Shown piece by piece: positions 15,027 to 52,219 of a stretch of 64,000 nucleotides of DNA. Source of the stretch: an uncultured Bacilli bacterium (GTDB lineage Bacteria; Bacillota_I; Bacilli_A; RF39; UBA660). The notes beneath the pieces were generated by a model. The model saw only the letters and a program-made list of their open reading frames with translations, searched no databases and was not told the DNA's origin. A program made the position numbers and the translations under genes. Each line of letters opens with the position of its first letter. The first letter of the stretch is position 1. The stretch covers positions 1,465 through 65,464 of the forward strand of contig CAKPJX010000005.1 in NCBI GenBank assembly GCA_934163035.1, given 5' to 3'.

Positions 15027-15095
15027 AAATATCACCTCTTTCAATATTTTATGATTTGGTATATAATAATATTAATCTTTTTAGGAGGCAAAAGA

Positions 15096-25742: not shown

Positions 25743-25743
25743 T

Positions 25744-26802: not shown

Positions 26803-26826
26803 ACAAGTTAAATCTTGTTTTTTTTC
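26801..26826 (+). terminator. Rho-independent terminator inside the island
   Basis: AAACAAG / CTTGTTT hairpin overlapping the stop, followed by a T run. Confidence 0.55.
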
Positions 26827-26896
26827 TATAATAATATTCCAATTTATTTTAAAATGCGTTATACTTAAAAAGAATAGAATAATAGGTGGTGAGATA

Positions 26897-30236: not shown

Positions 30237-31043
30237 ATGAAGAAAGTAAATAAGAGGAAAGGCAATAGATTAATATTAGTAATAATATTATTAAGCATTG
30301 CATTACTGGCTCTTATCTTTCTTCTTGTAAGGGGGATAAAAAATCTAATGCCCATTTACAAGAGTGAAGAAAGAACAGAAAATATCAAAAATTATAAAGT
30401 TACAGATGTTGATGCCGAAGTAGCAGCCTGGTTAAGAGTACAAGGAACAAATATTGACTATCCAGTAATTGATAATAATACTACTGTTGGAGTTAGCAGA
30501 ATAAAGCCAGATTTTACTTGGACACAAGGAGATATTAGTCCGCTACCAAATAAGTTATTCATATTAGGACATAATATAAAAAATGTATCTTCTAATCCTC
30601 TTATTACAGCAAAAGATCATACAAGATTTGAACAATTATTATCGTTCGTTTACTATGATTTCATAAAAGAAAATAAATATATTCAATATACAATAGATGG
30701 AACAGACTACTTATATAAAATATTCTCAGTTGCTTTTGTAGATGATTCTACACTAGACTATGAAAGTACCAATTATAGTAAAGAAGAAATGAAGAAATAC
30801 ATAAATCAATCAAAAAAAGATAGTTTCTTTGATTTTGATATAGATGTTAATGAAAATGATAAAATAATAAGCTTAATCACATGTACTAGATTCTTTGGAG
30901 CAACAAGAAAGTACGATTTTAAAATAGATGCTAGAATGGTAAGAAAAAAAGAAAGAGCCACTAACTATAGTGTTAAAAAGAACAAAAACTATAGTAAGAT
31001 AGAAAAAATAATGAGAGGTGAAAATGATGAACAAGAAGCATAA
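30237..31043 (+). CDS. srtB: Class B sortase-like transpeptidase (second copy)
   Basis: N-terminal TM, VAAWLRVQGTNIDYPVIDNN, FILGHNIKN (His), LITCTRF (Cys), IDARMVRK (Arg). Confidence 0.75.
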   Translation: MKKVNKRKGNRLILVIILLSIALLALIFLLVRGIKNLMPIYKSEERTENIKNYKVTDVDAEVAAWLRVQGTNIDYPVIDNNTTVGVSRIKPDFTWTQGDISPLPNKLFILGHNIKNVSSNPLITAKDHTRFEQLLSFVYYDFIKENKYIQYTIDGTDYLYKIFSVAFVDDSTLDYESTNYSKEEMKKYINQSKKDSFFDFDIDVNENDKIISLITCTRFFGATRKYDFKIDARMVRKKERATNYSVKKNKNYSKIEKIMRGENDEQEA

Positions 31044-33834
31044 GTTAAAAAGAATAAAATGGGGTGCACTTATAACTGTTAGTTGTTTAATTGGTGTTAT
31101 TCTTCTAAATACGAGTGCCAAAAGTTTAAGTAACTCAAAAGCAAAAGTAAAGAAACTGACTGAAACAAAAGCATCATGTAAAGTATATGAGAATTCTGAT
31201 TTTAATTCAAAAATCACAATATCTAAGCCAGAAAATGAAAGAAAAGTAAAAGTAGATGTTTCCATCAAGAAAAATATTGATGCCAATTTTTGGATATTCA
31301 TATCTGAAGGAGAAGATATGGGTGGACAAATTACCTTTAAAACAGAGGGCGAATTTAAAGGAAAAGATGGCTATCATGGAGATTATGACATCGAATTTCC
31401 TATAGTTGAATCCCACGTGGTAATAGTATATAAAGATGGTATAGCAGGTGCATGTGGAGAAACAGACAAAACAACAGCTAAGAATATTGCTACCGATTAT
31501 ATTAAAAATAAAAAATTTTCTGACAGTATGAAAACTACTATTAGTAATCAAGCTATTATCGCAAAAGGTGCATATCAAATAGTTGAAATGTCAGATGATG
31601 AACCAATTGAAGAGGATGATAGTGGTAACACTGAGGAAGAGGATAAAATAGCAAAAGAAATAGAAGGTATGACTTCTGAAAACGGTTCAATAGCAGGAAA
31701 TAGTGGAGGGGCAAGATTAGCCGATGATCCTAAAAACTTACCAGACGGCGATTTATTTTGCAGTTTGAATACTCCATATAAAGAAGGAATAACTAAAGGA
31801 GATGCCTATTATACAAATAATAAGTCATATTACCATAGTGAAACAACGGAAAAGAACTATTGTAAAAAAACCTGTGAAGAAACAATAACTATAAAATATG
31901 GGCCACCTGTCGCAACTAAGGCTGGAATGTGTTTTGAGTATAAAGTAAAAGTTGAAAGCAAGGTTTCTTGTAAGACTAAATGGTTAGGTGATGATGCTGG
32001 TCTTAAACCTAGAAAGAAAAAACTTTGTACTATTTATCCATCTTGTAACGGCAGTTCTACCTATGGTGATCAGGCTGGTCCTGATACTGATTTTGATAGC
32101 TGTGTTAATAAATGTGATAATGGCAAATATAGTCAGAAGTGTATTAATAAGTGTTACAAAGAAGTATATGAAAATGTAGACAATAAAAAAATATCTTATG
32201 ATAATAGCACAAATGATAATACAAGTGGCAGTCTATTAGCGACTAGAACAGCACTTTCAGATTTAGGTATAGATTTAAGTACCAAATTCTGCCAATCAGG
32301 TGCAAATGATCCAACTTATTATAAAAGCAACTATGATCAGTTAATGACAGCAATGAGAGATAAAAATAATGGTTGTGAATATAAAGAGGCAAAAGATGAA
32401 ACTATTTATTGGTCATGTTCAAGTGCTCACAGCTCAACAAATAATAGTAAGTATTGGCAAGCCTTAGGAAGATACTACTTCTTAACTGACAATAAAGCTA
32501 AGCAAACTCTACAATCAATTTCTACTAGCTGTAAAGGAGAACCACGTGGTACATACTATAGATATTACATTGATGCTGATGGCTTTAAACGTGCACTATT
32601 TAACAATGGCACCCATTGTACACAAGCGTGTTCATGGAAAAAATCAAGCAAGTCGCCTAGTGACTGTGTAGTTAGTAAAAGTAAAAGAGACAAAGAGTAT
32701 AAAGAAGCTTTGGAAACATATAAAAATTTGAAAGCAGCATGTAAGGCAGAAGCTTCATGTTCAACTACAGTAGCAAAATTTACTATAAGTGCAACAAATA
32801 AAGTGGCTAAAAATTATAAAGATGGAAAAGTTAGTGAAACAGGTGATATAACCTCCGCTTTTAATGCTAATGCACAAGGAAAAAGTATAATACATATTAC
32901 TAACGGTAATCCAATAATTGATAGCGGTGGTTGTTATGGATCATCAAGCGGAGGTTATGACTATATGACAGAATGGGCGTTCCCAGGAAGTTGGCGAAAT
33001 AACAAAAACGGTACGATATCGCAAACTAAGCCAACCGATACTAAGGGTTGGTCAAAAAGAGAAAAATATTATTGTACTTCACTTGATTCTGTAGGAGTAA
33101 ACTCTAATTGGTGGAATTGGGCTCAGTATACAAAACTAAAAGACAAGACTAATTATGAAAATTCAAGTATCAAATATAATGGTTCATCAGACAGTATTAA
33201 TTATAATATTACTGCGGAAACAAATAATTTTGGACACTTTGGATGGAATGTCACAATGAAATGCTTTTATGCAACCCCATCTGATGAAACTACAACTCCA
33301 CCATCAGAGTGTGAAGGAGAAGACGGATGTGGCACAAAAGATGAAACACCTAAGTTTGAATATGAGGCAAGAAGTGTTGATACAAAGGAAATGTTCCCAG
33401 AAGAGAGTAGAGGTAGTGGCGACGAGCAAATAATAGGATTTAACTGGACAGAAAAAGCCAATGAAAATCTTGAAGTTGATACTAGCAAAGAAGTAACAAT
33501 TGATGGAGAAAAGAAGACCCCTATTTCATATGAGATAAAGCCAGAAGCACTAAAGGAAAATATTAAAAAGCAAGCTGAGGACGGTAAAACATACAGTGAT
33601 GATAATCTAGAGTATTATGTTCAATTGAATAGAAAAGCCTTAAAAGAATTAAAGGGAATGACAATAGGAAAATTTAATGGAACATTTGAACCATATGCTG
33701 TTGGAAAAGAAGGTGTAAAACTATATACTATTCAGCGATACAAAACTAATTTGATAGACAATTATGGTGGAACTAGAAGAAGAACCAAATTATGTAATAA
33801 TTGGGATAATGATAGTTGTAGAAAATATAGCTAA
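31024..33834 (+). CDS. Large secreted Cys-rich protein, function unknown
   Basis: Signal peptide ...WGALITVSCLIGVILLNTSAKS. About 30 Cys, often as CxxxC/CxxxxxC pairs. No sorting signal. The start may be GTG 31018 or ATG 31024. Confidence 0.65.
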   Translation: MMNKKHKLKRIKWGALITVSCLIGVILLNTSAKSLSNSKAKVKKLTETKASCKVYENSDFNSKITISKPENERKVKVDVSIKKNIDANFWIFISEGEDMGGQITFKTEGEFKGKDGYHGDYDIEFPIVESHVVIVYKDGIAGACGETDKTTAKNIATDYIKNKKFSDSMKTTISNQAIIAKGAYQIVEMSDDEPIEEDDSGNTEEEDKIAKEIEGMTSENGSIAGNSGGARLADDPKNLPDGDLFCSLNTPYKEGITKGDAYYTNNKSYYHSETTEKNYCKKTCEETITIKYGPPVATKAGMCFEYKVKVESKVSCKTKWLGDDAGLKPRKKKLCTIYPSCNGSSTYGDQAGPDTDFDSCVNKCDNGKYSQKCINKCYKEVYENVDNKKISYDNSTNDNTSGSLLATRTALSDLGIDLSTKFCQSGANDPTYYKSNYDQLMTAMRDKNNGCEYKEAKDETIYWSCSSAHSSTNNSKYWQALGRYYFLTDNKAKQTLQSISTSCKGEPRGTYYRYYIDADGFKRALFNNGTHCTQACSWKKSSKSPSDCVVSKSKRDKEYKEALETYKNLKAACKAEASCSTTVAKFTISATNKVAKNYKDGKVSETGDITSAFNANAQGKSIIHITNGNPIIDSGGCYGSSSGGYDYMTEWAFPGSWRNNKNGTISQTKPTDTKGWSKREKYYCTSLDSVGVNSNWWNWAQYTKLKDKTNYENSSIKYNGSSDSINYNITAETNNFGHFGWNVTMKCFYATPSDETTTPPSECEGEDGCGTKDETPKFEYEARSVDTKEMFPEESRGSGDEQIIGFNWTEKANENLEVDTSKEVTIDGEKKTPISYEIKPEALKENIKKQAEDGKTYSDDNLEYYVQLNRKALKELKGMTIGKFNGTFEPYAVGKEGVKLYTIQRYKTNLIDNYGGTRRRTKLCNNWDNDSCRKYS

Positions 33835-33847
33835 AGGAGGTTTATAA

Positions 33848-34285
33848 ATGAATAAAGGTATATTAACAGTAGGAATAATTATTATGGCTATCACCGGGCT
33901 TGTAATGTTTAATATCATTACAAGCTGGTCACGTGGTGATGAATTAGATTATTATTTAGTTAAAGAAACAGCAGAAGCAGCCATGGAAGATGCTGTTGAC
34001 ACAACATTTTATAGGGATTCAGGACAAATTAGAATGGATTCAGAAAAGTTTGTAGAAAGCTTCCTTATACGTTTTGCTAAAGGTGTAGATAATACAAGAA
34101 ATTATGATATTAGATTTTATGATTTGAATGAGGTTCCACCTAAAGTTAGTGTAAAGGTTGACTCTGTAAACTCCTTAAGATATGACACGAATGAAACAGT
34201 ACAAATAAGTACAACCTATGATGGCATTATTGAGTCAACTAATAAACATGACCAATATGTAATCAATAGTAATAAGGAATTTTGA
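33848..34285 (+). CDS. Small protein with a prepilin-like N-terminus (MNKG + hydrophobic helix), candidate minor pilin or TadE/F-like
   Basis: MNKGILTVGIIIMAITGLVMFNII. Lies immediately upstream of the cpaB-like gene. RBS AAGGAGG. Confidence 0.4.
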   Translation: MNKGILTVGIIIMAITGLVMFNIITSWSRGDELDYYLVKETAEAAMEDAVDTTFYRDSGQIRMDSEKFVESFLIRFAKGVDNTRNYDIRFYDLNEVPPKVSVKVDSVNSLRYDTNETVQISTTYDGIIESTNKHDQYVINSNKEF

Positions 34286-34316
34286 TAATAGTAATTAATG
34301 AAAGTGAGGAATTAAA

Positions 34317-35123
34317 ATGGGGAATTTAGCAATGGGCATAAGAAAATTCTTTCAAAATAAGAATACTGTAACAGTAGTTGGTGTCGTAGTGGCTATTCTT
34401 GTATTATATATTGGCTATAATATAAGAGTAAAAAGAGCCATTAACCCAGTTACGGTTCCATATGCCAAGGAAGACATTAAGGGTGGTTCACAAATAACAT
34501 CCGATGCAATTGGAACAGTTGAGGTTCCACCTTCAATGTTAAAAGGAGATGTTCTTCTAAATCAAGGTGACATCATTGATAAATATGTAAGACCGGATGG
34601 TCTTATACCAGCTGGTAGTTTATTCTACAAGAAAGTTGTAGTTCCTGAAGAACAACTTCCAGCCAATATAATCTTGAAATATCCAGATGGCTATGTTTTA
34701 TATAATATGGCAGTTGATACTAGCACAACATATGGTAACTCAATATATCCAGAAAACTATATTGATATATATTTAAAAGCTGTTAACAGATTATCAGAGG
34801 GAGAGGCAGTAACACCAGATGCTGATAAGATTATGTTAGGAAAATTAGTTGAAAATGTAAAAGTATTAGCAGTAAAAGATGCTAGTGGACAACCAGTTTT
34901 TGCCAATCTTGATGAGCAAAGAACACCAGCAATGATAATCTTTGCAGTACCACAGGATTATTATATATTACTAAAGAAAGCTGAATATTTAAGAAGTTAT
35001 GATTCTACTTTAATACCAGTACCAACAAATGAGAGTACTAAAGAAGAGCAAGGTAAAATAACAATTTCAAGTGAAGCTTTAAAAGATTGGATTAATAAGG
35101 TTACAGTTTGGACAGATCAATAG
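34317..35123 (+). CDS. cpaB: Flp pilus assembly protein CpaB/RcpC-like (SAF domain)
   Basis: N-terminal TM. VTVPYAKEDIKGGSQITSDAIGTVEVPPSML is SAF-like. Also NMAVDTSTTYGNSIYPENYIDIYL and NVKVLAV...AMIIFAVPQDYYILLKKAE, which match the CpaB pattern. Confidence 0.6.
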   Translation: MGNLAMGIRKFFQNKNTVTVVGVVVAILVLYIGYNIRVKRAINPVTVPYAKEDIKGGSQITSDAIGTVEVPPSMLKGDVLLNQGDIIDKYVRPDGLIPAGSLFYKKVVVPEEQLPANIILKYPDGYVLYNMAVDTSTTYGNSIYPENYIDIYLKAVNRLSEGEAVTPDADKIMLGKLVENVKVLAVKDASGQPVFANLDEQRTPAMIIFAVPQDYYILLKKAEYLRSYDSTLIPVPTNESTKEEQGKITISSEALKDWINKVTVWTDQ

Positions 35124-35159
35124 AATTAAGAATAAAAGAATAATAGGGATGTGTGATAG

Positions 35160-36698
35160 ATGAATGAGAATATTTTTGACAAATTAGATTTTGGACCATT
35201 AAGAACACTATTAGATGATGATGACATCACAGATATTTCCTTCGATAATGGAGGACAAGTCTGGATTCGTTCACTATCACAAGGATCTATGAGAGTTGAG
35301 GTTCAGGGCTTAACCACTGAGTTCATTGAAAAATTAGCATTTCAATGTTCAAATGTTATGGGTACAACATTTAATAATGCTAAGCCTTTTCTAGATGCTG
35401 AATCATCAGAGTTAAGACTTAACTTTGTTCACTCTTCAATAGCAACTAATGGTATAGCCATGGTTATTCGTAAAACGCCAGCAAAAATAAGGCTAGAAAA
35501 AGATAAACTTTTAAAAGAAGAGTATTTTACACAAGATATTCATGACATTCTTATTAAATGTGTTGAAGGACATTGTAACATCATAGTAGCAGGAGAAACC
35601 GGTTCTGGTAAAACTGAGTTTGTAAAATATCTTGCTAGTCATACAAAAACAGAAGAAAAAATTATTACCATTGAGGATACATTGGAGTTGCACTTAGATA
35701 AAATATTTCCACAGCGAGATATTGTTGCTATGAAAACTAATAATGTAGCTAGCTATACAGACGTACTAGTAACTTGTATGAGACAGAATCCAAAATGGAT
35801 TCTACTATCAGAGGTTCGTAGTGCAGAAGCCGTAACAGCTGTTCGTAACTCTATATCTTCTGGACATAATATATTATCAACTATTCATGCTGACAAAGCA
35901 TCAGCTATTCCTTACCGTTTATATAGTTTGATGGAAACTGACTTAGACGTTAATCAGTTTCTTAATACAATATATAGATATGTTCAAATAGGTGTTCACA
36001 TAAGGGCATATTATAGTAAAAAATACCAAAAATTCCATCGTGAAGTTGATGAAGTTGTTGAGTTCTACGTAGATGAAAATAATAAACCACAAAGTAGAAT
36101 ATTATATCAAAAATTATTTGGAAAAGATCCAATACTAAGAAAACCAAGTGCACATCTTATTGAGTACTTAGAAAATCAAAATATTGATATTATGGCAATT
36201 ACATCAAAAATGAAAGAGGACGTTGAGGAGGCTGCAGATGAAGAAGTACAGCAAGAAGTTGCTCAAGTTACAACACAGATATCACAACCACAACAGCCAG
36301 CACCTATTCCTAATATGGGTAACACCACAAATGTAAATCAGCCACAAATAGCACCACTTAATAATACTCCGGTTATCCAACCTCTTTCTCCAACAATGGA
36401 TAATATTATTAATAATACCCCTGTTAATAATATAGCAGTCCCATTAAATCAAGCAATGAGTATTCCACAGGCACAAGTGATACCAAATGCCAATAATATT
36501 CAAATTCAAAAGCAAATACCATCTAATGCCGTAGTAGTTCCATCACCAGTAGAAAATGTTACTCAACAAATTCCTATTACTAACAACCAAGTTATTCCTT
36601 CATCAGGTGTAATACCATTACCAAGTCTTTCAACACAAGAAATACCGGAAAGAACTATTACTCAACAGGTTCCATTAAATGCAGGGCAAACAGGGTAG
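35160..36698 (+). CDS. tadA: TadA/CpaF-type secretion ATPase (T2SS-E/VirB11 superfamily) with a Q/P/N-rich C-terminal extension
   Basis: Walker A GETGSGKTE, ITIEDTLEL, Walker B ILLSEVR, His box STIHA, then about 155 low-complexity residues. Confidence 0.85.
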   Translation: MNENIFDKLDFGPLRTLLDDDDITDISFDNGGQVWIRSLSQGSMRVEVQGLTTEFIEKLAFQCSNVMGTTFNNAKPFLDAESSELRLNFVHSSIATNGIAMVIRKTPAKIRLEKDKLLKEEYFTQDIHDILIKCVEGHCNIIVAGETGSGKTEFVKYLASHTKTEEKIITIEDTLELHLDKIFPQRDIVAMKTNNVASYTDVLVTCMRQNPKWILLSEVRSAEAVTAVRNSISSGHNILSTIHADKASAIPYRLYSLMETDLDVNQFLNTIYRYVQIGVHIRAYYSKKYQKFHREVDEVVEFYVDENNKPQSRILYQKLFGKDPILRKPSAHLIEYLENQNIDIMAITSKMKEDVEEAADEEVQQEVAQVTTQISQPQQPAPIPNMGNTTNVNQPQIAPLNNTPVIQPLSPTMDNIINNTPVNNIAVPLNQAMSIPQAQVIPNANNIQIQKQIPSNAVVVPSPVENVTQQIPITNNQVIPSSGVIPLPSLSTQEIPERTITQQVPLNAGQTG

Positions 36699-36711
36699 AA
36701 AGGAGTAAAAC

Positions 36712-37614
36712 ATGTATATAGAAGAGTTATTTATAATTGCAGTCATCTTTATATTTATAGCAATGTATAGAAATTATAAAGGTCAAAATGTGGGAAAATT
36801 CATAACTACTCAAGTACAAGTCTTATATAATAAATTTGCTCCATATTCATTTAAGTTGGTCAGAGAAAAAACAAAAGAATTAGGACAAGAATATACATTA
36901 AGACAATATACAGTTCAAGTCGTTGGTATGTCGACTTTTGCGGGAGTAGTAAGTTATTTATATTTTTATAATTTAATAATATGTGCAATATATATTATAG
37001 CTGTAATTATGTTTATACCATATTTATCATTTTTAAGATGTAAAAGAATTTATAGTGAGTTCATATTTGAACAAGTCCAAGTATATACATCCAATGTTAT
37101 TATGGAATTTGCGACAACCCAATCATTCGTTAAATCTCTTGAAGGAGTAAGGAACTCTGGTGTATTAGAAGATCCAGTTAAAAGAGATGTGGATCACATG
37201 ATAGAATTAGCTTATCAAAATGGAAGTATTGATGAATCATTAGCCTATATGAGTAACCTTTATCCATATTATATTGTAAAGAATATGCATCAATTATTCT
37301 TACAAATTACTAAGGAAGGTGCCAGAAACTCTGCCGATTCACTAGAAAACATGCAACTAGACATCGATATGCTTGTTGAAAATGTATACCGAGATAGAAT
37401 AGAAAGAGCAACTTTCCATAAATCATTTATTCAATTTGGTCTGATGCTGTATTTGATGGTTATGTTAGTTCAATATTTATTAGGTAGAGAAACATATTTA
37501 ATCTTATTAGATAGATGGTATATACAAGTACTACTCCATGGTGTTTTAATAATTAATTCATATTTCCTTCTAAAAGGAGAAAAATATTATAATGAGAATG
37601 TAGGTGCGGAATAA
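36712..37614 (+). CDS. tadB: TadB-like platform protein (T2SS-F family)
   Basis: N-terminal TMs, a cytoplasmic helical domain, C-terminal TMs. Follows tadA. RBS AAGGAG. Confidence 0.55.
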   Translation: MYIEELFIIAVIFIFIAMYRNYKGQNVGKFITTQVQVLYNKFAPYSFKLVREKTKELGQEYTLRQYTVQVVGMSTFAGVVSYLYFYNLIICAIYIIAVIMFIPYLSFLRCKRIYSEFIFEQVQVYTSNVIMEFATTQSFVKSLEGVRNSGVLEDPVKRDVDHMIELAYQNGSIDESLAYMSNLYPYYIVKNMHQLFLQITKEGARNSADSLENMQLDIDMLVENVYRDRIERATFHKSFIQFGLMLYLMVMLVQYLLGRETYLILLDRWYIQVLLHGVLIINSYFLLKGEKYYNENVGAE

Positions 37615-38423
37615 TGGAAGTATTAATTGTTGGAGCTCTTTTCATGTGGATACTAATCTATAACAATACAATAGACAAAAGAAAATTTATGATTGATAAT
37701 CAAAAATATTTTGAAGCATTTAAAGAGGATGATTATGATTTTCTTGTTTATGCAAGGTATGGTGAGGATGTAGATGTAAATATACTATATTCAAGAAGAG
37801 TATTATACTCATTAATAGCCTTTATAATGGTATTAATGTTTACTCTAACCAGTGGAGATACTGCTAGTTTGTTTGATTCTCAGTTTTTTATAAACTTAGT
37901 TTTAGCTCTTGTAGTAGGAGTACTTGTATTTAAGTCATCATATATGCAATTAAAGAGATACTATAAAGTACATTTACATGAAATTGACGTTATGCTGCCA
38001 TATTTTTTAAAGAGTTTGGAAATCTTAATACAGCATTATACCGTTCCAGTTGCAATAGGTAAATCAATAGATGATGCTCCAGATATATTCAAACCAGGTT
38101 TAAGACACCTTGTAGAAAGAATAAATTCAGGTGATTCAACAATTGATCCATATATGGAGTTTGCTAATACTTACCCAGTTAGAGATTCAATGAGAATGAT
38201 GAGATTGCTTTATCGTTTGGGAATTGGTTCACAAGAGGGAAAACAAGAACGTTTGATGATGTTTTCAAGAACTGTTTCAAATTTACAAAATAAGGCACGT
38301 GAAACAAAATATAAAGAAAGACTTAATCACATGGAAAATCAGACTATGGTTATGCTAGTTGTAACTGGTGTTGGTGTTATGCTAGTTATTTTAATTTCCA
38401 TGATGATGATGTTTAGTATGTAA
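37614..38423 (+). CDS. tadC: TadC-like platform protein (T2SS-F family)
   Basis: Same topology as the previous ORF. Start overlaps the upstream stop (TAATG). Confidence 0.55.
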   Translation: MEVLIVGALFMWILIYNNTIDKRKFMIDNQKYFEAFKEDDYDFLVYARYGEDVDVNILYSRRVLYSLIAFIMVLMFTLTSGDTASLFDSQFFINLVLALVVGVLVFKSSYMQLKRYYKVHLHEIDVMLPYFLKSLEILIQHYTVPVAIGKSIDDAPDIFKPGLRHLVERINSGDSTIDPYMEFANTYPVRDSMRMMRLLYRLGIGSQEGKQERLMMFSRTVSNLQNKARETKYKERLNHMENQTMVMLVVTGVGVMLVILISMMMMFSM

Positions 38424-38437
38424 AATGAAATAAAATA

Positions 38438-38466
38438 TTGTTATTTGCTAAATAATTTGTTATACT
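38438..38466 (+). promoter_or_regulatory. Internal sigma-A type promoter candidate in front of the small pilin-like ORF
   Basis: TTGTTA, 17 nt spacer, TATACT with TGT just upstream. Confidence 0.5.
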
Positions 38467-38499
38467 AATGGTATAAAGATATGAAAGGAGATGTATTAA

Positions 38500-38667
38500 A
38501 TGAAAGCAGCAACTGGTGAATTAAACCTAACTGTTATTACATTAATTGCTATAGCAGCAGTAATTGGTTTCTTCTGGATTTTATGGCCAGGTATTAAAGA
38601 TAGTTTAAATAATCAGTGGGATAACATTTCTAGTAGCCATGAATTAATTATTCTAGATAGAAAATAG
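38500..38667 (+). CDS. 55-aa pilin-like ORF (Flp/Tad-type major pilin candidate), absent from the supplied ORF track
   Basis: AAAGGAG 9 nt before the ATG. Translation is MKAATGELNLTVITLIAIAAVIGFFWILWPGIKDSLNNQWDNISSSHELIILDRK: a short charged leader ending in Gly, followed by a hydrophobic helix of about 20 aa. Confidence 0.55.
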   Translation: MKAATGELNLTVITLIAIAAVIGFFWILWPGIKDSLNNQWDNISSSHELIILDRK

Positions 38668-38685
38668 TTAAAGAGGTGATTTTAT

Positions 38686-39153
38686 ATGCGTGATGCTCTA
38701 GGCGGATTAGTTAACATAGCAATAATTGTCGTATTTTTAGTTATAGTTAGTGGATATTTAGCATTTAATGTTAATTATACTAAGGCATTTCGTGTTAAAA
38801 ATAAAATAATCTCCACAATAGAAAATATGGAGGGGCTTCAAGATTTCAATGATCCTACAAAATCACAAGTAAAAGCATTTGAAAATTCAATCGGCTATGA
38901 TGTAAGTATACCAAAAAGTGCTAGTCTGCCAACTGTTCCTATAGGGGAAAGCAAATGGCAAGAACACAAAGAGTATGGCTGTTATATAAGGGAAGTAACT
39001 GATGAAACAGGTGCAAGCGATGCAACCCAAAAAAAGTATTATGAAGTAATAACTTTTGTTACAGTTGATATTCCAATAATAAAAAAAATTATGCCCCAAT
39101 TTCCATTTTTCCAAGTAAAGGGAGCAACTAAATCAATTAAGGTATATAATTAA
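38686..39153 (+). CDS. TadE/pseudopilin-like protein (tentative)
   Basis: MRDALGGLVNIAIIVVFLVIVSGYLAF N-terminus, meaning a leader ending in Gly plus a hydrophobic helix. Lies next to the pilin-like ORF. Confidence 0.4.
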   Translation: MRDALGGLVNIAIIVVFLVIVSGYLAFNVNYTKAFRVKNKIISTIENMEGLQDFNDPTKSQVKAFENSIGYDVSIPKSASLPTVPIGESKWQEHKEYGCYIREVTDETGASDATQKKYYEVITFVTVDIPIIKKIMPQFPFFQVKGATKSIKVYN

Positions 39154-39191
39154 AAGGGGACAGGTTAATATTTCAAGATGAGGGTGATATA

Positions 39192-40211
39192 GTGAATGTA
39201 ATAGTTGGTAATAAACAACAAAACTTACTATCAAACTTAGACATTGACATTATAAAAAGTATCACCGGCACTTATTCTGCGTCTGAATTAGTAGAGATAT
39301 TTAAAAACTTTTTCTTTAATAAAATGGTTTTAGATGTTACTGCTTTGAAGGACTATAGTAATATTAACAGCTATAAAACTTTAGCAAGTGGTATGGACCC
39401 GGATAAAATTATATGCTTTGTGCCAGAAAAAAGTCCGCTATGTACAGCTGGATTTTTCTCTGCTTTAGTGTCAACTGGAATTTATAACTTTACAACTAAT
39501 ATTGACGGCATTAAATATTTAACAAGGCATTCTAATACATTGCAAGATGTAAAACAATTTCAAAATGTTCAACCAATGATAAATAACATAAAGGAATCAA
39601 ATGAATTAAAACCAGATTTAGTAAAGGTATCAACTTCATCAAACAATACAAACAGCAGAATAATAGGAATAAAAAGCATTACTGGGGGAGCTGGAAGTAC
39701 TACATTTACATATATGTTAAAAAAGGAACTAGTAAAAAAACTTGATCCAAATGTCATTGCTGTAGAAATAGATAAGTCCGATTTCAAAGCATTTGGAGAT
39801 AGGAATATGTACTCAATTACTGATAATCAATTAAAGTCATTTTTGAGTAAAAATAGTTCATCAAAGATTATCTTAGTTGACTTAAACAATAGTAAAAATT
39901 CCTATCTATGTAATGATATAATATACTTGTTAGAGCCAAGTATAGTAAAAATAAATAAACTATTAAGATATGGACCTACAATACTGCAAAAATTAAGAAA
40001 TAAAAAAGTTGTTTTAAATAAAAGCTTGCTTACTTCACAGGATGTACTTGATTTTGAGTATGAATCAGGATTAAAAGTATTTTATAATATGCCACCATTA
40101 AATGAGAGAAAGCAAAATGATATTATTAGTGAATTTTTATCAAAAATGGGGTTAATTGGTTCAAAAGCAAAATCAAATTCAGGTCGGGTGTTTGGATTAT
40201 TTAGAAGGTAA
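39192..40211 (+). CDS. TadZ/CpaE-like ParA/MinD-family ATPase with an N-terminal receiver-like domain (tentative)
   Basis: GTG start after GAGGGTGA. IIGIKSITGGAGSTTFTYML is a deviant Walker A, and KIILVDLNNS is Walker B-like. Confidence 0.5.
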   Translation: MNVIVGNKQQNLLSNLDIDIIKSITGTYSASELVEIFKNFFFNKMVLDVTALKDYSNINSYKTLASGMDPDKIICFVPEKSPLCTAGFFSALVSTGIYNFTTNIDGIKYLTRHSNTLQDVKQFQNVQPMINNIKESNELKPDLVKVSTSSNNTNSRIIGIKSITGGAGSTTFTYMLKKELVKKLDPNVIAVEIDKSDFKAFGDRNMYSITDNQLKSFLSKNSSSKIILVDLNNSKNSYLCNDIIYLLEPSIVKINKLLRYGPTILQKLRNKKVVLNKSLLTSQDVLDFEYESGLKVFYNMPPLNERKQNDIISEFLSKMGLIGSKAKSNSGRVFGLFRR

Positions 40212-40215
40212 ATAA

Positions 40216-40244
40216 TTGACAAAACTAAAGTTATAATGTATTAT
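40216..40244 (+). promoter_or_regulatory. Sigma-A type promoter candidate at the start of the T4SS block
   Basis: TTGACA, 17 nt spacer, TATTAT with an extended TG. Confidence 0.45.
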
Positions 40245-40268
40245 GTTATTAGTGAAGGAGAGGTAAGT

Positions 40269-40619
40269 ATGTTAGATTTATTTCAAATTGGAGTAGTAGG
40301 AACAATAAGTGATAGCTGTGGTGGATTAGGTCCAGTTGTTAAAATATTAAAACTAGGTGTTTTAAGAATTGTATGTATTGTTATTCCAATCGCTCTAATC
40401 GGTTTTGCAATATTTGATTTAGGAAAAGCCATTATTGCAAGTGATGATAAAGAAGTAAAAGCTGCTCAATCAAGACTTATAAAGAGAATTATATATGGTA
40501 TAGTTATTTTCTTGGTACCATTTATAATCACATTAGTAATGAATCTTGTAGCACAAGGTGCAGATCAATCAGAGACTAATACTCAAAATTGGGCAACATG
40601 TTGGAATAGTATTCAATAA
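40269..40619 (+). CDS. VirB2/TrbC-like two-TM pilin-like protein (tentative)
   Basis: Start moved to the ATG after GAAGGAGAGG. Two TM helices are separated by the charged loop ASDDKEVKAAQSRLIKR. Paralogous to 40690-41346. Confidence 0.45.
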   Translation: MLDLFQIGVVGTISDSCGGLGPVVKILKLGVLRIVCIVIPIALIGFAIFDLGKAIIASDDKEVKAAQSRLIKRIIYGIVIFLVPFIITLVMNLVAQGADQSETNTQNWATCWNSIQ

Positions 40620-40620
40620 T

Positions 40621-40646
40621 AGCAAACGTTTGCTATTTTTTTTTTA
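40621..40646 (+). terminator. Strong rho-independent terminator directly after the first VirB2-like gene
   Basis: Palindrome AGCAAACGTTTGCT followed by ATTTTTTTTTT. Confidence 0.65.
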
Positions 40647-40689
40647 CTCTGTTATAATTAATATGATATAATGTTTTTGGAGTGATTTT

Positions 40690-41346
40690 ATGAAATGGTC
40701 AAAACTATTACCAACAATATTTTTATTAGGCTTAATACTAGCTCTACCACACAATGTAAAGGCAGAAGAGGCCAAAAAGTGTCTATATGATAATAGTTCA
40801 ACAATTACAATACATACTGATAATACGGCAGAAGTTTCAGATGGAATTATAAGTTGGAATTGGTGGAAAAAGAAAAATGGTAACAAGCTTATTTGTCCAA
40901 AGTATATTATTATGTCAAATCCAGTAGCTGTAAGAGATAGTTTAGAAGAAGCACAAAAATATTCTACTCAAAATAAAGCTAATTATTACAAGCTAGTGAG
41001 TTCAGAAATTGTTACAAAGAGTGATAACAACACTACACAAAATAATTCCGAAGGAACATCAGAGTCATATTTAGGAAAAGTAGATGATGATGACTCAGTT
41101 GCATGGTTAATAAAAAAGGTTTTAAATTATGTAAGAATAGCTGGACCAGTATTAGTCTTAATTTTAACAAGTGTTGACTATTTAAGAGCATTAATTCAAA
41201 GCGATGACGAGACAATGGCTAAAATAAATAAAAAATTAGGAACCAGATTATTATTAGTAGTTTTACTATTTCTTATACCTACACTTGTAAATGTTGTACT
41301 ATCATTAGTTGGATATGATACAGCAAATACTGAGGCATTTAAATAA
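40690..41346 (+). CDS. Secreted or membrane protein with a VirB2/TrbC-like C-terminal two-TM module (paralog of 40269-40619)
   Basis: Signal peptide ...LGLILALPHNVKA. The C-terminal ALIQSDDETMAKINKKLGTRLLLVVLLFLIPTLVNVV aligns with AIIASDDKEVKAAQSRLIKRIIYGIVIFLVPFIITLV. Confidence 0.45.
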   Translation: MKWSKLLPTIFLLGLILALPHNVKAEEAKKCLYDNSSTITIHTDNTAEVSDGIISWNWWKKKNGNKLICPKYIIMSNPVAVRDSLEEAQKYSTQNKANYYKLVSSEIVTKSDNNTTQNNSEGTSESYLGKVDDDDSVAWLIKKVLNYVRIAGPVLVLILTSVDYLRALIQSDDETMAKINKKLGTRLLLVVLLFLIPTLVNVVLSLVGYDTANTEAFK

Positions 41347-41360
41347 AAGAGGTGATATAA

Positions 41361-43451
41361 ATGACTGAATATACTAGTGCTAACACAATTACCGATATGC
41401 TTAGAAGTATTCTAAGTACTATAATAGATAGGCCAGCATTTCTTATACTTAGTTTAATGTATGAGATTTTCTTTAATGTTGCCAATGCAGAGTTATTTAA
41501 CGATTCTACTATTAGAAGATTTTATTATAAAATCCAATTAATACTTGGCGTTTTTATGATATTTAAATTGTCTATTTCAGTATTAGAAGCTATCGTAAAT
41601 CCCGAAAAGCTAACAGCAAAAAAGACAGGTACAATGTCAATAATTGCTAGAGTATTTATATCATTAGCACTATTGGCTGCATTAACCCCAATAAATATTC
41701 CAAATCCTAAGAATGAATATGAAAGAAAATTAAAAAATAACGGTTTAATCTTTGGTATTTTATATTCACTACAATATCGAATATTGCAACAGAATACGCT
41801 GGGAAGATTAGTATTAGGAGATGAATTTGTTAGCAGTGAAAGTAGCGGTCAAAACAAAAAAATAAGGGAAACAGTTTTGTCAACCTCAGATGCTGCTAAT
41901 TCCTTCTCATCAACTATCTTAAAAACGTTTATGAGAATAAACTTAGTACCAAAAAGTGAAAGACAAACAAATAATGATGGTAAGCCAGATGAACTTAACA
42001 AAAACAATTGGGTATGTAAGGACATAGACAGCACACTTATAGATACATATAGAGACGTAAATGCAGATCCACAACAATTACTTATGTTCATCAATTATGA
42101 TTGCGATACATCATCAAGTGATGGTGTAGTATCGCACCTTAAATCTAAATTAAATAAATTAGCTAGCAAGGCTGATTATGCTTTTACATATAACCCATTA
42201 GGTGGAATTGCTGCATATGTATTTGCTTTCTTATTATTAACATTTACTGTTGATGTGGCAATTAGAGCCATAAAAATTGCAATATTAAGATTAATAGCTC
42301 CGATACCAGTTATTAGTTATATGAGCCCTAACCCAAAGGATAATGGTGCTATGGGAACTTGGGCAAAATCATTAGCGACAACATATCTATCACTATTTAC
42401 TAGACTACTTATAATTTACTTAGTAATATATTTAATTCAAGACATGATTCAAAATGGTATGGCAGCAAAAACTACTGGTGGCTTGATAGGCGGCATTTCA
42501 TTTATATTGATTTGCTTTGGCTTATTCTTATTTGCCAGACAAGCTCCAAAGTTTATTCAGGATGCACTTGGAATAAAAGCCGGTAGTGGAAGCGTTGGTC
42601 TTGCACTTGCTGCATCAGGACTTGGAACAATAAGGGGTGGAGGAAAACCAAGAGATGCTTGGAGCAATATGATGGAAGCATCAAGAGCTGCACAAAGTGG
42701 TGGAAAAGATCCTGTTTCAGGAAATTCGTATAGAGCTAACTTGGGTTCATATAAAGATATGAGAGATGCAACGGTAAAGAAAGAAAAGGATAAATATGAT
42801 AAGAATTTAGCTCAAAATTATTATGAAAGAGCATTAGATATTGATGATCAGGATGGGGCAGGCTATAAAAGTCGTCGATGGTGGCAGTCAAAAGACTCTG
42901 GAGAAGCTAGAGCAAAAACTCAAACCTTTGACGCAAATAAACAACGATATAAGGCGAATTGGCAAACACATGAACGTGCAACTGGTAGAGGTGTAACAAC
43001 AAGGGCTGGATCGGAATTCCATACTAGAAGAGATCCGTATCCAACACCGACCCCATCTGGACAACAAGGAACACCACCATCTGGACCACCAAGTAGAAAT
43101 AGAGGGGATGCTGCCGATAAAAGTATTGGTATAGAAGTAAGACCAGTATATAAACATAAACCAATAAAAGTAGGTGGTAAAACTATAACTATAGGAGAAC
43201 CAGAGATGCGTCAAAACGGTGGTTCTGGATATGCTGTTGACGGATCAATACCAAGTGGACCAATACCAGGCGGACCAACACCAAGTGGACCAACACCAGC
43301 CGGACCAACACCAGCCGGACCAACACCAGGTGGACCAACACCAGCCGGACCAACACCAGCTGGACCAACACCAGGTGGACCAACACCAGATGGACCAACA
43401 CCAGGCGGACCAACACCAGGTGGACCAACACCAGGTGGACCAACAGCGTAA
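41361..43451 (+). CDS. VirB6/TrbL-like polytopic T4SS channel protein with a Pro-rich repeat tail
   Basis: At least 6 hydrophobic helices. Sits between the VirB2-like and VirB3/VirB4-like genes. The C-terminal 65 aa are GPTPx pentapeptide repeats. Confidence 0.6.
43248..43448 (+). repeat. In-frame 15-nt tandem repeat, about 13 copies (GGACCAACACCAGNN), encoding (GPTPx)n
   Basis: Directly visible: [66 protein letters not shown]. Confidence 0.9.
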
Positions 43452-43469
43452 AAAGGAGTGTGATACATA

Positions 43470-43778
43470 GTGAATTATTTAATTCCAGCAAATACAAAAA
43501 GAGGACAATTGATATTGGGACTGTTTAGACCCTTCGATTTGATTTTGGTTGGTAGTGGAATAGCTGTAACAATATTGTTACTTGCTTTATTACCACTAAG
43601 TTCAACATTTATGACAGTATTAGCACTATTACCAGGGGGGGTATGTGCTATTCTTGTTACTCCATTACCGTATTACCACAACGTATTAAATGGCATAATT
43701 GAAGTGTATTCATTTTTAACAAGTACCCAAAAATATAAATGGAAAGGTTGGTGTTATAGGGAATGGCTCAAAAAGTAG
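43470..43778 (+). CDS. PrgI-family / VirB3-like small membrane protein
   Basis: GTG start after AAGGAG. Has the [24 protein letters not shown] pattern, two TMs, and lies directly upstream of VirB4. Confidence 0.55.
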
Positions 43779-44317
43779 CAAGTACATACAAGTACACAGA
43801 AGATTGGCTTCCAGTCAAAACAATTCAAAATGGTATGATCCTTACAAAAAGTAATTATAAAGTAACAGGAGTAAAAATATCTCCTAAAAATATTTTTATT
43901 CTTGATCCAGACGTTCAAAACAATATATTAATAAGCTTAAAAAACTTTTATAATACTATTGATTTTGAATTTTGGCTAGTTGTTGCTGATAGACCAGTAG
44001 ACATATCTGTCTATATGTCAAATTTACAATTAAAATTCAATGAAGCAACATCACCAGCAATTAGAAAGCTGATTGCTCAAGACATTCAAAAAGGTGAAAA
44101 CTTTATCAATAATAACATTGTTGATACGGAATATTACTTCCTATTTAAAGATAAGAATGTGGATCTCCTACAAAAAAGAGTAAGAATGATGATCAATGGT
44201 TTAGCAAGCTGTGGTTTGAACGCGTCACAAACTAGCAATGAAGATTTGAGAGTTATTTTAGAAAATTTCTTAAATGGGGGAAATAGAACTGAATTTGGGA
44301 CGGTGATGCCAGTATGA
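43763..44317 (+). CDS. N-terminal domain of VirB4-type ATPase encoded as a separate ORF
   Basis: DWLPVKTIQNGMILTKSNYKVTGVKISPKNIFILD...ILISLKNFYNTI resembles the N-terminus of Gram-positive VirB4 (Tn916 Orf16/TcpF/PrgJ type). Its stop overlaps the next start (ATGA). Confidence 0.55.
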   Translation: MAQKVASTYKYTEDWLPVKTIQNGMILTKSNYKVTGVKISPKNIFILDPDVQNNILISLKNFYNTIDFEFWLVVADRPVDISVYMSNLQLKFNEATSPAIRKLIAQDIQKGENFINNNIVDTEYYFLFKDKNVDLLQKRVRMMINGLASCGLNASQTSNEDLRVILENFLNGGNRTEFGTVMPV

Positions 44318-46113
44318 GTACAGGGCTTATAAGTCAGTTAGCTCCTAAGGGGCTACATTTTTCTGTTAGTGATTTTGTAATAAGTGATAAATATGCAACA
44401 ATAATGACAGTTGTTTCATATCCCAAATATATCCAACCAGGATATCTTTCAAATTTAACAAATATGCCTGGTATAAAAGTTGTTGTAAAACACATCCCAG
44501 TTCCATTTCAACAAATGGCAAAGATGTTAAATAAGCAGGTTGCTGATTTAAAAGAAAAATATCATAATGAAAGAGATTTAACAGTAAGAGAAAGATTGAG
44601 GCAAGATGCCGAAAGCTTAGAGTATTTCATTTCAATGCTAGCTGGAAGTCAAGCAAGAATTTTTGACTTTCAAATGCATATTATGATTACTTCTAGTACT
44701 AAAGAGGGACTAGAACTAAAAAAGTTAAATGTCAAAAACTACTTAGATGCAATGGAGCTAAAAGCAGTATCATTAAGATTTGAGCAAGAAAAAGTTTTAA
44801 AATCAATGCTTCCAATATTTACATCAAAAGGGGCTCAAGAGTTAGAATCTAGGATTGGGACACCAATACCATCTGTTACAATATCAGCAATGTATCCATT
44901 CATCTTTGATAGCATAAAAGATCCAGGACTATCCACCTTATTGGGTGTAGACTTTTCTGGTGGTATTATCTTATTTAACCAATTTTTATATAAGATAAAA
45001 AAAGAAAATAATAGAAATAATGCCAATATGATAATTCTTGGTACTTCTGGTTCGGGAAAATCAACTGCAGCTAAATTGATGCTAAGAACACATATTAGAA
45101 ATGGTTGCCAAATTGTTATAATTGACCCAGAAGATGAGTTTAGAGAAATGACAGAAACATATGGCGGAGATACGGTAGATATAGGTAAAGGTGGAGAATT
45201 CGGTTTAATTAATCCATTAGAAATAGTTATTGATGCCGATGAAGAAGAAATAAAACAAGGCTTAGGATACACCGTTTTAACAAGAACATTACAATTTTTA
45301 AAAGCTTTTATGAAGTACTATGATCCATCCATAGAAGAAGATGTTTTAACCATGTTTAGTGAAATTGTACAAGATACATATAAGCGTTTTGGGATTGACT
45401 ATAACACTAATTTTTCAAGCTTTACATCAGCAGATTATCCAACATTTAGTGATGTTTATGCAACAATAAGAGGAAAATTAATGTCTATGACAGATCACAC
45501 ACAAGAACGTGATATCATGGAACGACTAGAATTAAAAGTAAGGCCAATCACAAAAGAATTAAAATTTTATTTTGATGGTCACACAACTATCAGTAAAGAT
45601 AGTGATTTTATGGTCTTCAATATAAAAGAATTAATGAATAGTGATTCTAATGTTAGAAATGCCTTATTCTTTAACATATTAAAATATGCTTGGGGACTAT
45701 GTCTAGATTATAGTGTTGATACAGTACTAATGGTAGATGAAGCCCATGTATTACTAGGAGACAATAATGCCCTAGGTGCTGACTTCTTAGCTCAGGTTCA
45801 AAGAAGAGCAAGAAAGTATAACACTGGAACTATTATAATAACTCAGCAGCCAAGTGATTTCTCTGCACCAGCTGTTATTACGCAGGGAAAAGCTATTTTT
45901 GATAATGCCTCATACTATTTAGTTATGGGCTTGAGAAAGCAAGCTGTAGAAGATTTAAGTTTACTTATAGATTTAAATGATAGTGAAAAAGAAAGTATTA
46001 AAAGATACTCACAAGGTGAAGCACTATTCGTCTGTGGAAATAGACGTATGAGAATAAATGTTGCTGTCACTAAAGAAGAATTGGACTCTTTCGGTATTGG
46101 AGGAGGACTATAG
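44314..46113 (+). CDS. virB4: VirB4-type T4SS ATPase (C-terminal two thirds)
   Basis: Walker A GTSGSGKST, Walker B LMVDEAHVLL, IIITQQPSDF. Confidence 0.85.
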   Translation: MSTGLISQLAPKGLHFSVSDFVISDKYATIMTVVSYPKYIQPGYLSNLTNMPGIKVVVKHIPVPFQQMAKMLNKQVADLKEKYHNERDLTVRERLRQDAESLEYFISMLAGSQARIFDFQMHIMITSSTKEGLELKKLNVKNYLDAMELKAVSLRFEQEKVLKSMLPIFTSKGAQELESRIGTPIPSVTISAMYPFIFDSIKDPGLSTLLGVDFSGGIILFNQFLYKIKKENNRNNANMIILGTSGSGKSTAAKLMLRTHIRNGCQIVIIDPEDEFREMTETYGGDTVDIGKGGEFGLINPLEIVIDADEEEIKQGLGYTVLTRTLQFLKAFMKYYDPSIEEDVLTMFSEIVQDTYKRFGIDYNTNFSSFTSADYPTFSDVYATIRGKLMSMTDHTQERDIMERLELKVRPITKELKFYFDGHTTISKDSDFMVFNIKELMNSDSNVRNALFFNILKYAWGLCLDYSVDTVLMVDEAHVLLGDNNALGADFLAQVQRRARKYNTGTIIITQQPSDFSAPAVITQGKAIFDNASYYLVMGLRKQAVEDLSLLIDLNDSEKESIKRYSQGEALFVCGNRRMRINVAVTKEELDSFGIGGGL

Positions 46114-46135
46114 AAGGTAGTTAGGTGGTGGTAGC

Positions 46136-49018: not shown

Positions 49019-49096
49019 AACAAAAAAGTAGTATTAGCCAATGCTTATATATAATACAAGGCTATATTGTGTGCACTAAACTTATAGGAGGTTATT

Positions 49097-49882: not shown

Positions 49883-49943
49883 ATAAAATAATGACTAAAC
49901 TAAAAGATAATGTTATAATAAAAAAAGAAAGGAAGTAGTTACT

Positions 49944-52202: not shown

Positions 52203-52219
52203 AAGAGGGAGGAATTTAT

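Follow-up and report, generated by a model that had tools for sequence, protein, structure and literature searches.

In a 64,000-nucleotide stretch of DNA from an uncultured Bacilli bacterium (positions 1,465 to 65,464 of contig CAKPJX010000005.1; hereafter the window), the 55-codon open reading frame (ORF) at 38500–38667 is a real gene, conserved together with its promoter and with its place in a Tad-like gene cluster. We think it probable that it encodes the major subunit of a divergent Tad-like pilus within the superfamily of type IV filaments (TFF), that the product is processed after Gly6, and that the pilus serves the type IV secretion system (T4SS) encoded next to it.

A conserved 55-codon gene with its own promoter

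Seventy-six nucleotides separate the stop codon of a 269-aa ORF (38423) from the start of the 55-aa ORF, and a 155-aa ORF begins at 38686. A first-pass annotation, made from the sequence alone, had described an unlisted ORF preceded by AAAGGAG and by TTGTTA-17-TATACT, and we located all three elements at the positions listed below. The ORF was indeed missing from the ORF track used for that annotation, but it is predicted by public gene callers, always under the name 'hypothetical protein'.

38438–38466, + strand: sigma-70-type promoter (-35 TTGTTA at 38438–38443, 17-nt spacer, -10 TATACT at 38461–38466)
38484–38490, + strand: ribosome-binding site AAAGGAG, ending 9 nt before the ATG
38500–38667, + strand: candidate major pilin gene, 55 aa; ATG ORF with the translation MKAATGELNLTVITLIAIAAVIGFFWILWPGIKDSLNNQWDNISSSHELIILDRK
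38500–38517, + strand: predicted leader MKAATG of the 55-aa protein, codons 1–6
38521–38586, + strand: predicted hydrophobic helix of the 55-aa protein, residues 8–29
Residues 31–55, + strand: variable tail of the 55-aa protein

The dinucleotide TG at 38458–38459 gives the promoter an extended -10 element, TGtTATACT (38458–38466). At the level of a single sequence the promoter match is not above chance, as 8 kb of this DNA (29% GC) contain 53 promoter-like sites compared with 49.7 ± 6.6 in shuffled versions; it is phylogenetic footprinting that supports the call. In 77 of 82 related loci a match to TTGNNN-N14-16-TGnTAnnnT ends 30–55 nt before the start codon, and in the aligned upstream regions a -35 TTGNNN is followed, at constant distance, by an extended -10 TGnTATAAT, both set in variable intergenic sequence. 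The ribosome-binding site is kept in the same alignment as GAAAGGA(G/T). The earlier proposal that the ORF has a promoter of its own is thus supported by conservation, and the combination of a private promoter with a strong ribosome-binding site suits a subunit that is required in large excess.

Among 5.8 billion proteins searched, homologues formed 1092 clusters at 90% identity, from gut metagenomes, and a profile search of cluster representatives gave 499 clusters at 50% identity (E<=1e-3). Relatives are encoded in at least 157 GTDB species genomes, whose labels ('uncultured Bacilli', 'Mycoplasma sp. CAG:877', 'Candidatus Faecimonas intestinavium' and 'uncultured Tenericutes/Mollicutes') denote what we take to be the reduced-genome gut group usually termed RF39. 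Among 77 distinct DNA sequences, the ratio of nonsynonymous to synonymous differences (pN/pS) is 0.107 over codons 1–30 compared with 0.54 over codons 31–44, with pS about 0.52–0.53. The N-terminal part of the gene is therefore under strong purifying selection, and the reading frame, whose conservation the first-pass annotation had singled out as a check, is kept.

Residues G6, E7, T11 and T14 are invariant across a family set reaching down to 38% identity, and over that range there is little or no change in the N-terminus M-K-x-A-[TS]-G-E-[LM]-N-[LM]-T-V-[IV]-T or in a later W-P. The C-terminus is hypervariable in both sequence and length. In relatives of 70–105 aa it forms a domain of 30–50 aa rich in Ser, Thr, Gly and Cys, and we take the C-terminus to be extracellular because of these Cys-rich extensions. 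An invariant N-terminal helix joined to a hypervariable C-terminus supports a pilin-like course of evolution. Within the tail, a motif Q-W-x-N-[IV]-S (38620–38631, residues 39–44) is near-invariant in the short RF39-type members and missing from the longer Cys-rich relatives; it holds an N-x-S sequon that might be a modification site.

Pilin-like features of the 55-aa protein

The protein has a single hydrophobic segment (residues 8–29, mean Kyte-Doolittle hydropathy up to 2.66). The charge distribution flanking this segment, together with the variable Cys-rich C-terminus of relatives, predicts an N-in/C-out topology. A short basic leader ending in Gly and followed by about 20 hydrophobic residues is the arrangement described by the class III/PilFind-type rule, and MKAATG with residues 8–29 conforms to it, Gly6 being invariant in the family. 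The rule of a hydrophobic residue at +1 and Glu at +5 does not describe the family, which has an invariant Glu at +1 and an invariant Thr at +5. The residues after Gly6 are E-L-N-L-T-V, so that +6 is Val and the G/xxxxEY motif (Glu+5, Tyr+6) is absent, and the G/FTLxE motif of type IVa pilins was not found in the protein either. The first-pass annotation had remarked on the Gly followed by Glu, with no Glu at +5, and had placed the protein outside the canonical G/FTLxE pilins; the former is seen in the window protein and across the family, and Glu at +1 and Thr at +5 confirm the latter.

Searches against known families agree with this placement. The Pfam model Flp_Fap (PF04964) gave no match at E<=1 among 27 family members (the window protein and 26 relatives), the result that the first-pass annotation had led us to expect, and of the other pilin-family models only two matched any member at that level. 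Sub-threshold matches to the archaeal model Pilin_N (PF07790; 3 of the 27 members, best E 0.0077) and to the class III signal peptide model TIGR04205 (2 of the 27, best E 0.083), none of them from the window protein, stay short of the profile thresholds for membership and are weak family hints. Against the PDB, the family profile returned transmembrane-helix noise and a match to ATP synthase subunit b (E 0.02), the membrane anchor of which was also matched in NCBIfam (E 0.018); as nothing else emerged from the PDB searches, homology to solved pilins was rejected. The C-terminal part of ATP synthase subunit b is cytoplasmic, and since the Cys-rich C-termini of relatives suggest an external C-terminus, we hold the match to be compositional. 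The protein also differs from VirB2/TrbC-type pilins in having one hydrophobic segment and no T4SS_pilin match. Judged by its sequence, it belongs to no described pilin family, being neither Flp nor a canonical type IV pilin; in every feature readable from sequence and context it would work like a pilin.

The N-terminal signal recurs on the neighbouring 155-aa protein. Both proteins open with the motif M-[KR]-x-A-x-G, and residues M1, R2, D3, A4, G6 and G7 of the 155-aa protein are invariant in 37 homologues. In distant loci the candidate pilin begins MKEATGE and its neighbours begin MRE[AS][IV]GG. A six-frame translation of the 64-kb window contains the pattern [KRQ][AED][AS]xG[EG] only twice, at the N-termini of the 55-aa and 155-aa proteins. 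The common start motif strengthens the idea that the two may share an unusual processing signal. An AlphaFold 2 (AF2) model of the 155-aa protein (predicted local distance difference test score, pLDDT, 72.7) combines an N-terminal helix of 46 residues with one further helix and a 4–5-stranded sheet, a predicted 'lollipop' that corresponds in its general layout to the type IV pilin plan. A protein with a DUF5411 domain is encoded further upstream, and its orthologues begin MNK-[G/A/S]-MLTVGII, the hydrophobic stretch included. The archaeal class III rule calls for a charged residue, then Gly or Ala, then a hydrophobic residue ([KR][GA]-hydrophobic), and the predicted N-termini of the DUF5411 orthologues fit the rule in this form.

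The Tad-like module and the adjacent secretion system

The 55-aa gene lies in an array (25098–53437, about 25.1 to 53.4 kb) whose genes all point the same way. Its neighbours are the following.

33848–34285, + strand: DUF5411 protein, possible further pilin-like subunit (Pfam DUF5411, E 2.6e-43)
34317–35123, + strand: CpaB/RcpC-like protein with a SAF domain (sub-threshold RcpC, E 2.7e-4; SAF; TIGR03177 pilus_cpaB, E 4e-7)
35160–36698, + strand: CpaF/TadA/VirB11-type secretion ATPase (Pfam T2SSE, E 4e-28, 98.6 bits against a cut-off of 24.9)
36712–37614, + strand: TadB-like polytopic membrane protein (putative platform), 300 aa, by indirect homology via a Priestia T2SSF protein
37614–38423, + strand: second polytopic membrane protein, in the TadC position, 269 aa, by synteny and a Priestia homologue
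38686–39153, + strand: candidate minor pilin, 155 aa, with N-terminus MRDALGG followed by 20 hydrophobic residues
39192–40211, + strand: ParA/MinD-like protein in the TadZ/CpaE position (weak AAA_31 and BcsQ matches only)
40236–53437, + strand: co-directional T4SS of the Mycoplasma integrative and conjugative element (ICE) type, by family matches to Mycoplasma ICE

A TFF is minimally defined by an ATPase, an inner-membrane platform and a pilin (PMC6668835). The first of these is encoded nearby at 35160–36698, an ATPase of the PilB/GspE/CpaF family whose top NCBIfam matches were VirB11, TadA-family and FlaI, each below cut-off. For the platform, neither the 300-aa nor the 269-aa protein had a direct Pfam match, and PDB profile searches of both were empty. 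The 300-aa protein resembles a protein of a Priestia koreensis plasmid annotated as 'type II secretion system F family protein' (tblastn E 3e-3; hhalign with the 300-aa family, probability 97.2%, E 3e-11), which itself matches Pfam T2SSF PF00482 at E 3.4e-5 and 24.2 bits compared with a cut-off of 25.2, and a platform assignment for the 300-aa protein seems reasonable. The 269-aa protein aligns with the product of the gene that follows the Priestia T2SSF gene (hhalign probability 97.2%); its AF2 model (pLDDT 64) gave no Foldseek match below E 0.7, and no paralogy between the 300-aa and 269-aa proteins was detected (hhalign probability 4%). The label 'tadC-like' that the 269-aa gene had been given is thus backed by synteny and by homology to an unannotated Priestia protein, but not by Pfam, PDB or Foldseek.

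The order of these genes (CpaB-like, ATPase, 300-aa, 269-aa, 55-aa, one or more genes of 145–170 aa, and ParA-like) is kept in 80–88 of 88 loci, among them that of a relative that is about 42% identical and carries two tandem pilin paralogues and two 169-aa genes. The position of the ParA-like gene is conserved in related loci, and also in the loci L086, L090, L092 and L093. A search for homologous small ORFs beside tadC-like genes, proposed with the first annotation, found the 55-aa gene in the same place in all related loci. Nor did a better pilin gene emerge, as the locus holds no other subunit candidate for the Tad-like machine and the two VirB2-like ORFs downstream belong to the T4SS. A 938-aa protein encoded upstream was considered as a giant minor pilin and rejected on finding that a distant orthologue bears an ordinary Sec signal peptide.

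The T4SS is complete and of Gram-positive type. It contains two VirB2-like ORFs (40236–40619 and 40690–41346, with weak matches to T4SS_pilin and to the Mbov_0395 'pilin-like conjugal transfer protein'), a TrbL/VirB6-like protein, a split VirB4, a SpoIID/M23 hydrolase, a VirD4 coupling protein and a 405-aa protein. VirB4 is encoded by two overlapping ORFs, 43763–44317 (184 aa) and 44314–46113 (599 aa), which match residues 98–276 and 297–891 of Mbov_0397; the split is not an assembly error, because the same division (181 + 596 aa) is found in related genomes. All genomes examined have the Tad-like module fused to a VirB4/VirD4 T4SS. At its C-terminus (43190–43451) the TrbL/VirB6-like protein consists of a run of GPTP(A/G/S) repeats, which gives rise to long spurious ORFs on the opposite strand.

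The whole array sits between housekeeping genes (greA and a rhodanese-like ORF) and has a GC content only slightly above that of its flanks (0.31–0.33 compared with 0.27–0.28). Upstream lie an HD-domain gene and greA; downstream are the rhodanese-like ORF (a label that is a reading of its sequence), a VTT-domain gene, rmuC, trigger factor and lon. In both related loci with long enough flanks, greA is again upstream of the array. No relaxase, integrase or recombinase was found in the 64-kb window, despite the VirD4 coupling protein. Megablast of 33800–40700 against plasmid and phage collections gave no match, nor did tblastn of the N-terminal consensus of the 55-aa family against plasmids, and a plasmid or phage origin was rejected. 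The array has the look of a chromosomally fixed organelle and not of a mobile element. We found no literature on a Tad-like or T4SS locus in RF39-type genomes.

Two further features of the array were noted. An LPXTG-type sorting signal appears to be split by a one-base frame change at 26770–26900, where a 358-aa ORF (25726–26802) ends ...IIIPPNTGID and an overlapping ORF in another frame opens with KQVKSCFFSIIIFQFILKCVILKKNR; the parts of the signal are PPNTG, a hydrophobic stretch and a basic tail. A good ribosome-binding site and ATG at 26897 suggest that the gene after the 358-aa ORF really starts there, and two sortase genes (25098–25742 and 30237–31043) are nearby. At opposite ends of the array, proteins of 588 aa (28462–30228) and 405 aa (52220–53437) share an N-terminal membrane anchor, an 'AA..Y(Y/F)....LP' segment and a C-terminal ...G(S/T)GTE(N/K)DPY.I(T)K. 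No family match was found for either protein, and a homologue lies inside the T4SS block of a distant locus (L086:13791-14951).

Interpretation and comparison with known systems

Taken as a major pilin, the 55-aa protein would be transcribed from its own extended -10 promoter within the long co-directional array and translated from its strong ribosome-binding site. We infer its membrane topology, cleavage, polymerisation and function as follows. The product would enter the membrane N-in/C-out via its 22-residue hydrophobic segment, and a peptidase whose gene lies elsewhere in the genome would remove the six-residue leader MKAATG by cutting behind the invariant Gly6. The CpaF-like ATPase and both platform proteins would then lift the mature peptide, opening Glu-Leu-Asn-Leu-Thr, out of the membrane and polymerise it; minor, priming subunits would be the 155-aa protein, whose leader is of the same type, and perhaps also the DUF5411 protein. 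The invariant N-terminal helices would form the filament core and the short variable C-terminus would be exposed. Most likely the filament makes or stabilises the cell-cell contacts needed by the T4SS, a role suggested by the constant fusion of the two systems.

Several results weigh against the protein being a pilin of this kind. Pfam scans and a motif scan found no A24-type (GxGD) peptidase in the 64-kb window, and there is none within 10 kb of the gene in 88 loci (1.58 Mb), bar an unverified candidate on the Priestia plasmid. Searches of Pfam, NCBIfam and the PDB revealed nothing significantly similar to the protein among pilin families or solved pilins; the canonical Glu+5 is missing, and the residue at -2 is Thr or Ser and not charged. 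Foldseek with the 155-aa model gave nothing below E 0.48, with pilin chains (6qvf, 8uhf) appearing only at E>1, and an hhalign alignment of the 55-aa and 155-aa families, albeit in register, was not significant (E 0.11). With both of these non-significant, the case for a common signal is a motif-level argument. The identity of the second platform protein, moreover, has no Pfam, PDB or Foldseek support and is given by synteny. The first-pass reading of a candidate major pilin passed every computational test able to refute it; as the protein fails every family test and no peptidase gene was found near the locus, cleavage after Gly6 and filament formation are predictions.

Some proteases and related genes were seen in and around these loci. 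The candidate on the Priestia koreensis plasmid NZ_CP061869 (L089:169-687) is a 172-aa polytopic hypothetical ORF with the sequence SPGDTKMF, recalling the GxGD of prepilin peptidases, and it is located some 4.5 kb upstream of the DUF5411 gene with which the Priestia DUF5411/CpaF/T2SSF locus begins; it has no Pfam or PDB sequence match and is a lead only. In the window, a rhomboid intramembrane protease gene (15051–16247, Pfam E 5.7e-34) is located 22 kb upstream among housekeeping genes, and this protein and LspA (5499–5993) are the sole intramembrane proteases seen there. The rhomboid as the leader-removing enzyme, should the genome be without an A24 peptidase, is speculative. In a distant relative with Cys-rich pilin C-termini, thioredoxin/PedC-like and CPBP (Rce1-like) genes lie beside the array on the opposite strand (L086:525-1682); they may be linked to disulfide formation, or be unrelated.

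The ORF is short, and taken as a single sequence its promoter-like match does not rise above chance, both of which could be expected of a chance ORF in AT-rich intergenic DNA. The probability of this is close to nil: more than 1000 homologue clusters, the profile search and the pN/pS of 0.107 over codons 1–30 in 77 distinct sequences refute it, and both the ribosome-binding site and the promoter are conserved. A better contender, which we still consider unlikely, is that the protein is an unprocessed small bitopic membrane protein and a structural or regulatory part of the Tad-like/T4SS machine, such as an assembly factor or a stator-like element. The lack of a prepilin peptidase near the locus in the genomes examined speaks for it, as do the missing Glu+5, the lack of a pilin-family match and a sequence that resembles, weakly, only the ATP synthase subunit b membrane anchor. 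Such a part should be conserved over its whole length, yet the C-terminus is hypervariable and gains Cys-rich domains. A conserved strong private promoter inside the array also argues against a machine part, and the two tandem paralogues in some loci are typical of pilins and unusual for a stoichiometric component. The same N-terminal motif is, furthermore, carried by the 155-aa neighbour with its helix-plus-sheet model.

It is very improbable that the product is a secreted ribosomal peptide, similar to a bacteriocin or pheromone, whose short leader ends in Gly and which the neighbouring ATPase and membrane proteins export. The protein is small, distant relatives have Cys-rich C-terminal domains, and one distant locus has the thioredoxin/PedC-like and CPBP (Rce1-like) genes beside it; but those genes are on the opposite strand and are absent from the window and from RF39-type loci, no ABC or peptidase-C39 exporter is present, and the leader has only 6 residues and precedes a 22-residue membrane-spanning helix, the most conserved part of the protein. 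We give just as little credence to a conjugative VirB2-type pilin of the adjacent T4SS, a possibility raised by the small size and hydrophobicity of the protein and by the 1.6 kb at which it precedes the T4SS genes. The hydrophobic helices of VirB2-type pilins number two and the 55-aa protein has one; its gene is inside the ATPase-platform-ParA block and outside the T4SS block, which already has two weak T4SS_pilin/Mbov_0395 ORFs of its own. A more far-reaching version of the pilin reading, which we regard as decidedly doubtful, is that the family constitutes a new class of type IV filament subunit whose M-K-x-A-T-G | E-L-N leader is cut by a non-A24 protease, in a hybrid Tad-like/T4SS organelle serving contact-dependent exchange. 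The protease would be a rhomboid such as 15051–16247 or an enzyme of the locus, and the organelle, vertically inherited and relaxase-free in the window, would let small-genome gut Bacilli exchange DNA or other cargo with neighbouring cells rather than spread a mobile element.

Returning to the major-pilin interpretation, its interest lies partly in the breadth of the family, with hundreds of clusters in at least 157 species of an abundant uncultured reduced-genome gut lineage that are annotated only as 'hypothetical protein' and have no Pfam or NCBIfam model. Standard pipelines for finding pili need a recognisable pilin, so that the system as a whole will escape them. If the protein is a pilin, the rules for class III signals would be widened to include Glu at +1, no Glu+5 and a 6-residue leader in a Tad-like system, and the family could supply the missing subunit for the DUF5411-type machines noticed in Clostridia. 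The constant fusion to a VirB4/VirD4 T4SS at a chromosomal site raises the question of cell contact and exchange of DNA or cargo by auxotrophic gut bacteria, and an exposed variable C-terminus would be a strain-level surface antigen.

Among the known counterparts of the core module are DUF5411 loci. An operon of DUF5411, CpaF and PilC/GspF-like genes was predicted in Roseburia, Ruminococcus and Eubacterium (Miller et al. 2022, PMC9523054). It was seen as an uncharacterised secretion or pilus system and no pilin was identified for it, because the remaining genes are reported to be unlike pilus components (PMC9523054). These Clostridia operons share DUF5411, a SAF/CpaB-like gene, the CpaF-type ATPase and two platform genes with the window locus, and the Priestia koreensis plasmid NZ_CP061869 has the same core of DUF5411, SAF/CpaB-like, ParA-like, CpaF/VirB11, T2SSF and second membrane protein. 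The Priestia locus is without a homologue of the 55-aa family, a DUF4320-like 128-aa gene following its platform genes, and fusion to a T4SS, as in the window array, is not reported for the Clostridia or Priestia loci. The T4SS half of the array compares best with Mycoplasma ICE families (Mbov_0395, Mbov_0396 and the VirB4 Mbov_0397, at 348 bits for VirB4), with weaker TrbL-like and VirB2-like matches and all window T4SS matches below family cut-offs. To our knowledge, Mycoplasma ICEs carry no CpaF/platform/pilin module.

Archaeal type IV pilins with class III signal peptides are alike in having a short leader, a small residue at -1 and no requirement for Glu+5, and the sub-threshold Pilin_N and TIGR04205 matches in a few members and the MNK-[G/A] start of the DUF5411 proteins point in the same direction. 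They differ in that these matches are far below thresholds, that -2 is Thr or Ser and not charged, that the host is bacterial, and that no FlaK/PibD-type peptidase was found near the 55-aa gene. Tad systems have been proposed to derive from archaeal Epd-type pili (PMC6668835). The Flp pilins of Tad (type IVc) pili, for which we compared Flp1 of Aggregatibacter actinomycetemcomitans, PilA of Caulobacter crescentus and Flp of Bifidobacterium breve, are likewise very small subunits (50–90 aa) with little beyond one hydrophobic helix and with Gly at -1. In their loci too, a CpaF/TadA-type ATPase, two platform genes, a CpaB-like gene and a ParA-like gene of the TadZ/CpaE type adjoin, and larger pseudopilin-like genes with the same leader motif are nearby. 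Tad loci of Gram-positive bacteria can have their peptidase gene elsewhere, as in the B. breve system. Unlike Flp pilins, the 55-aa family has no Flp_Fap match and no G/xxxxEY, has Glu at +1 and Thr at +5, and has a leader of 6 residues; its gene comes after the platform genes and not at the front of the operon, and the pseudopilin-like neighbours are not TadE/TadF, one being DUF5411 and the other an unnamed family.

The association with a T4SS has a parallel in the IncI1 plasmid R64, where a type IVb thin pilus (PilS/PilV) stands beside a conjugative T4SS and stabilises mating pairs in liquid. The R64 pilin is type IVb, about 200 aa long with the canonical Glu+5, and is encoded on a Gram-negative plasmid with the PilU peptidase in the operon; the window array is chromosomal, with no relaxase or integrase found in the 64 kb. 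Both have a type IV filament module joined physically, and presumably also in function, to a VirB4/VirD4 DNA-transfer system.

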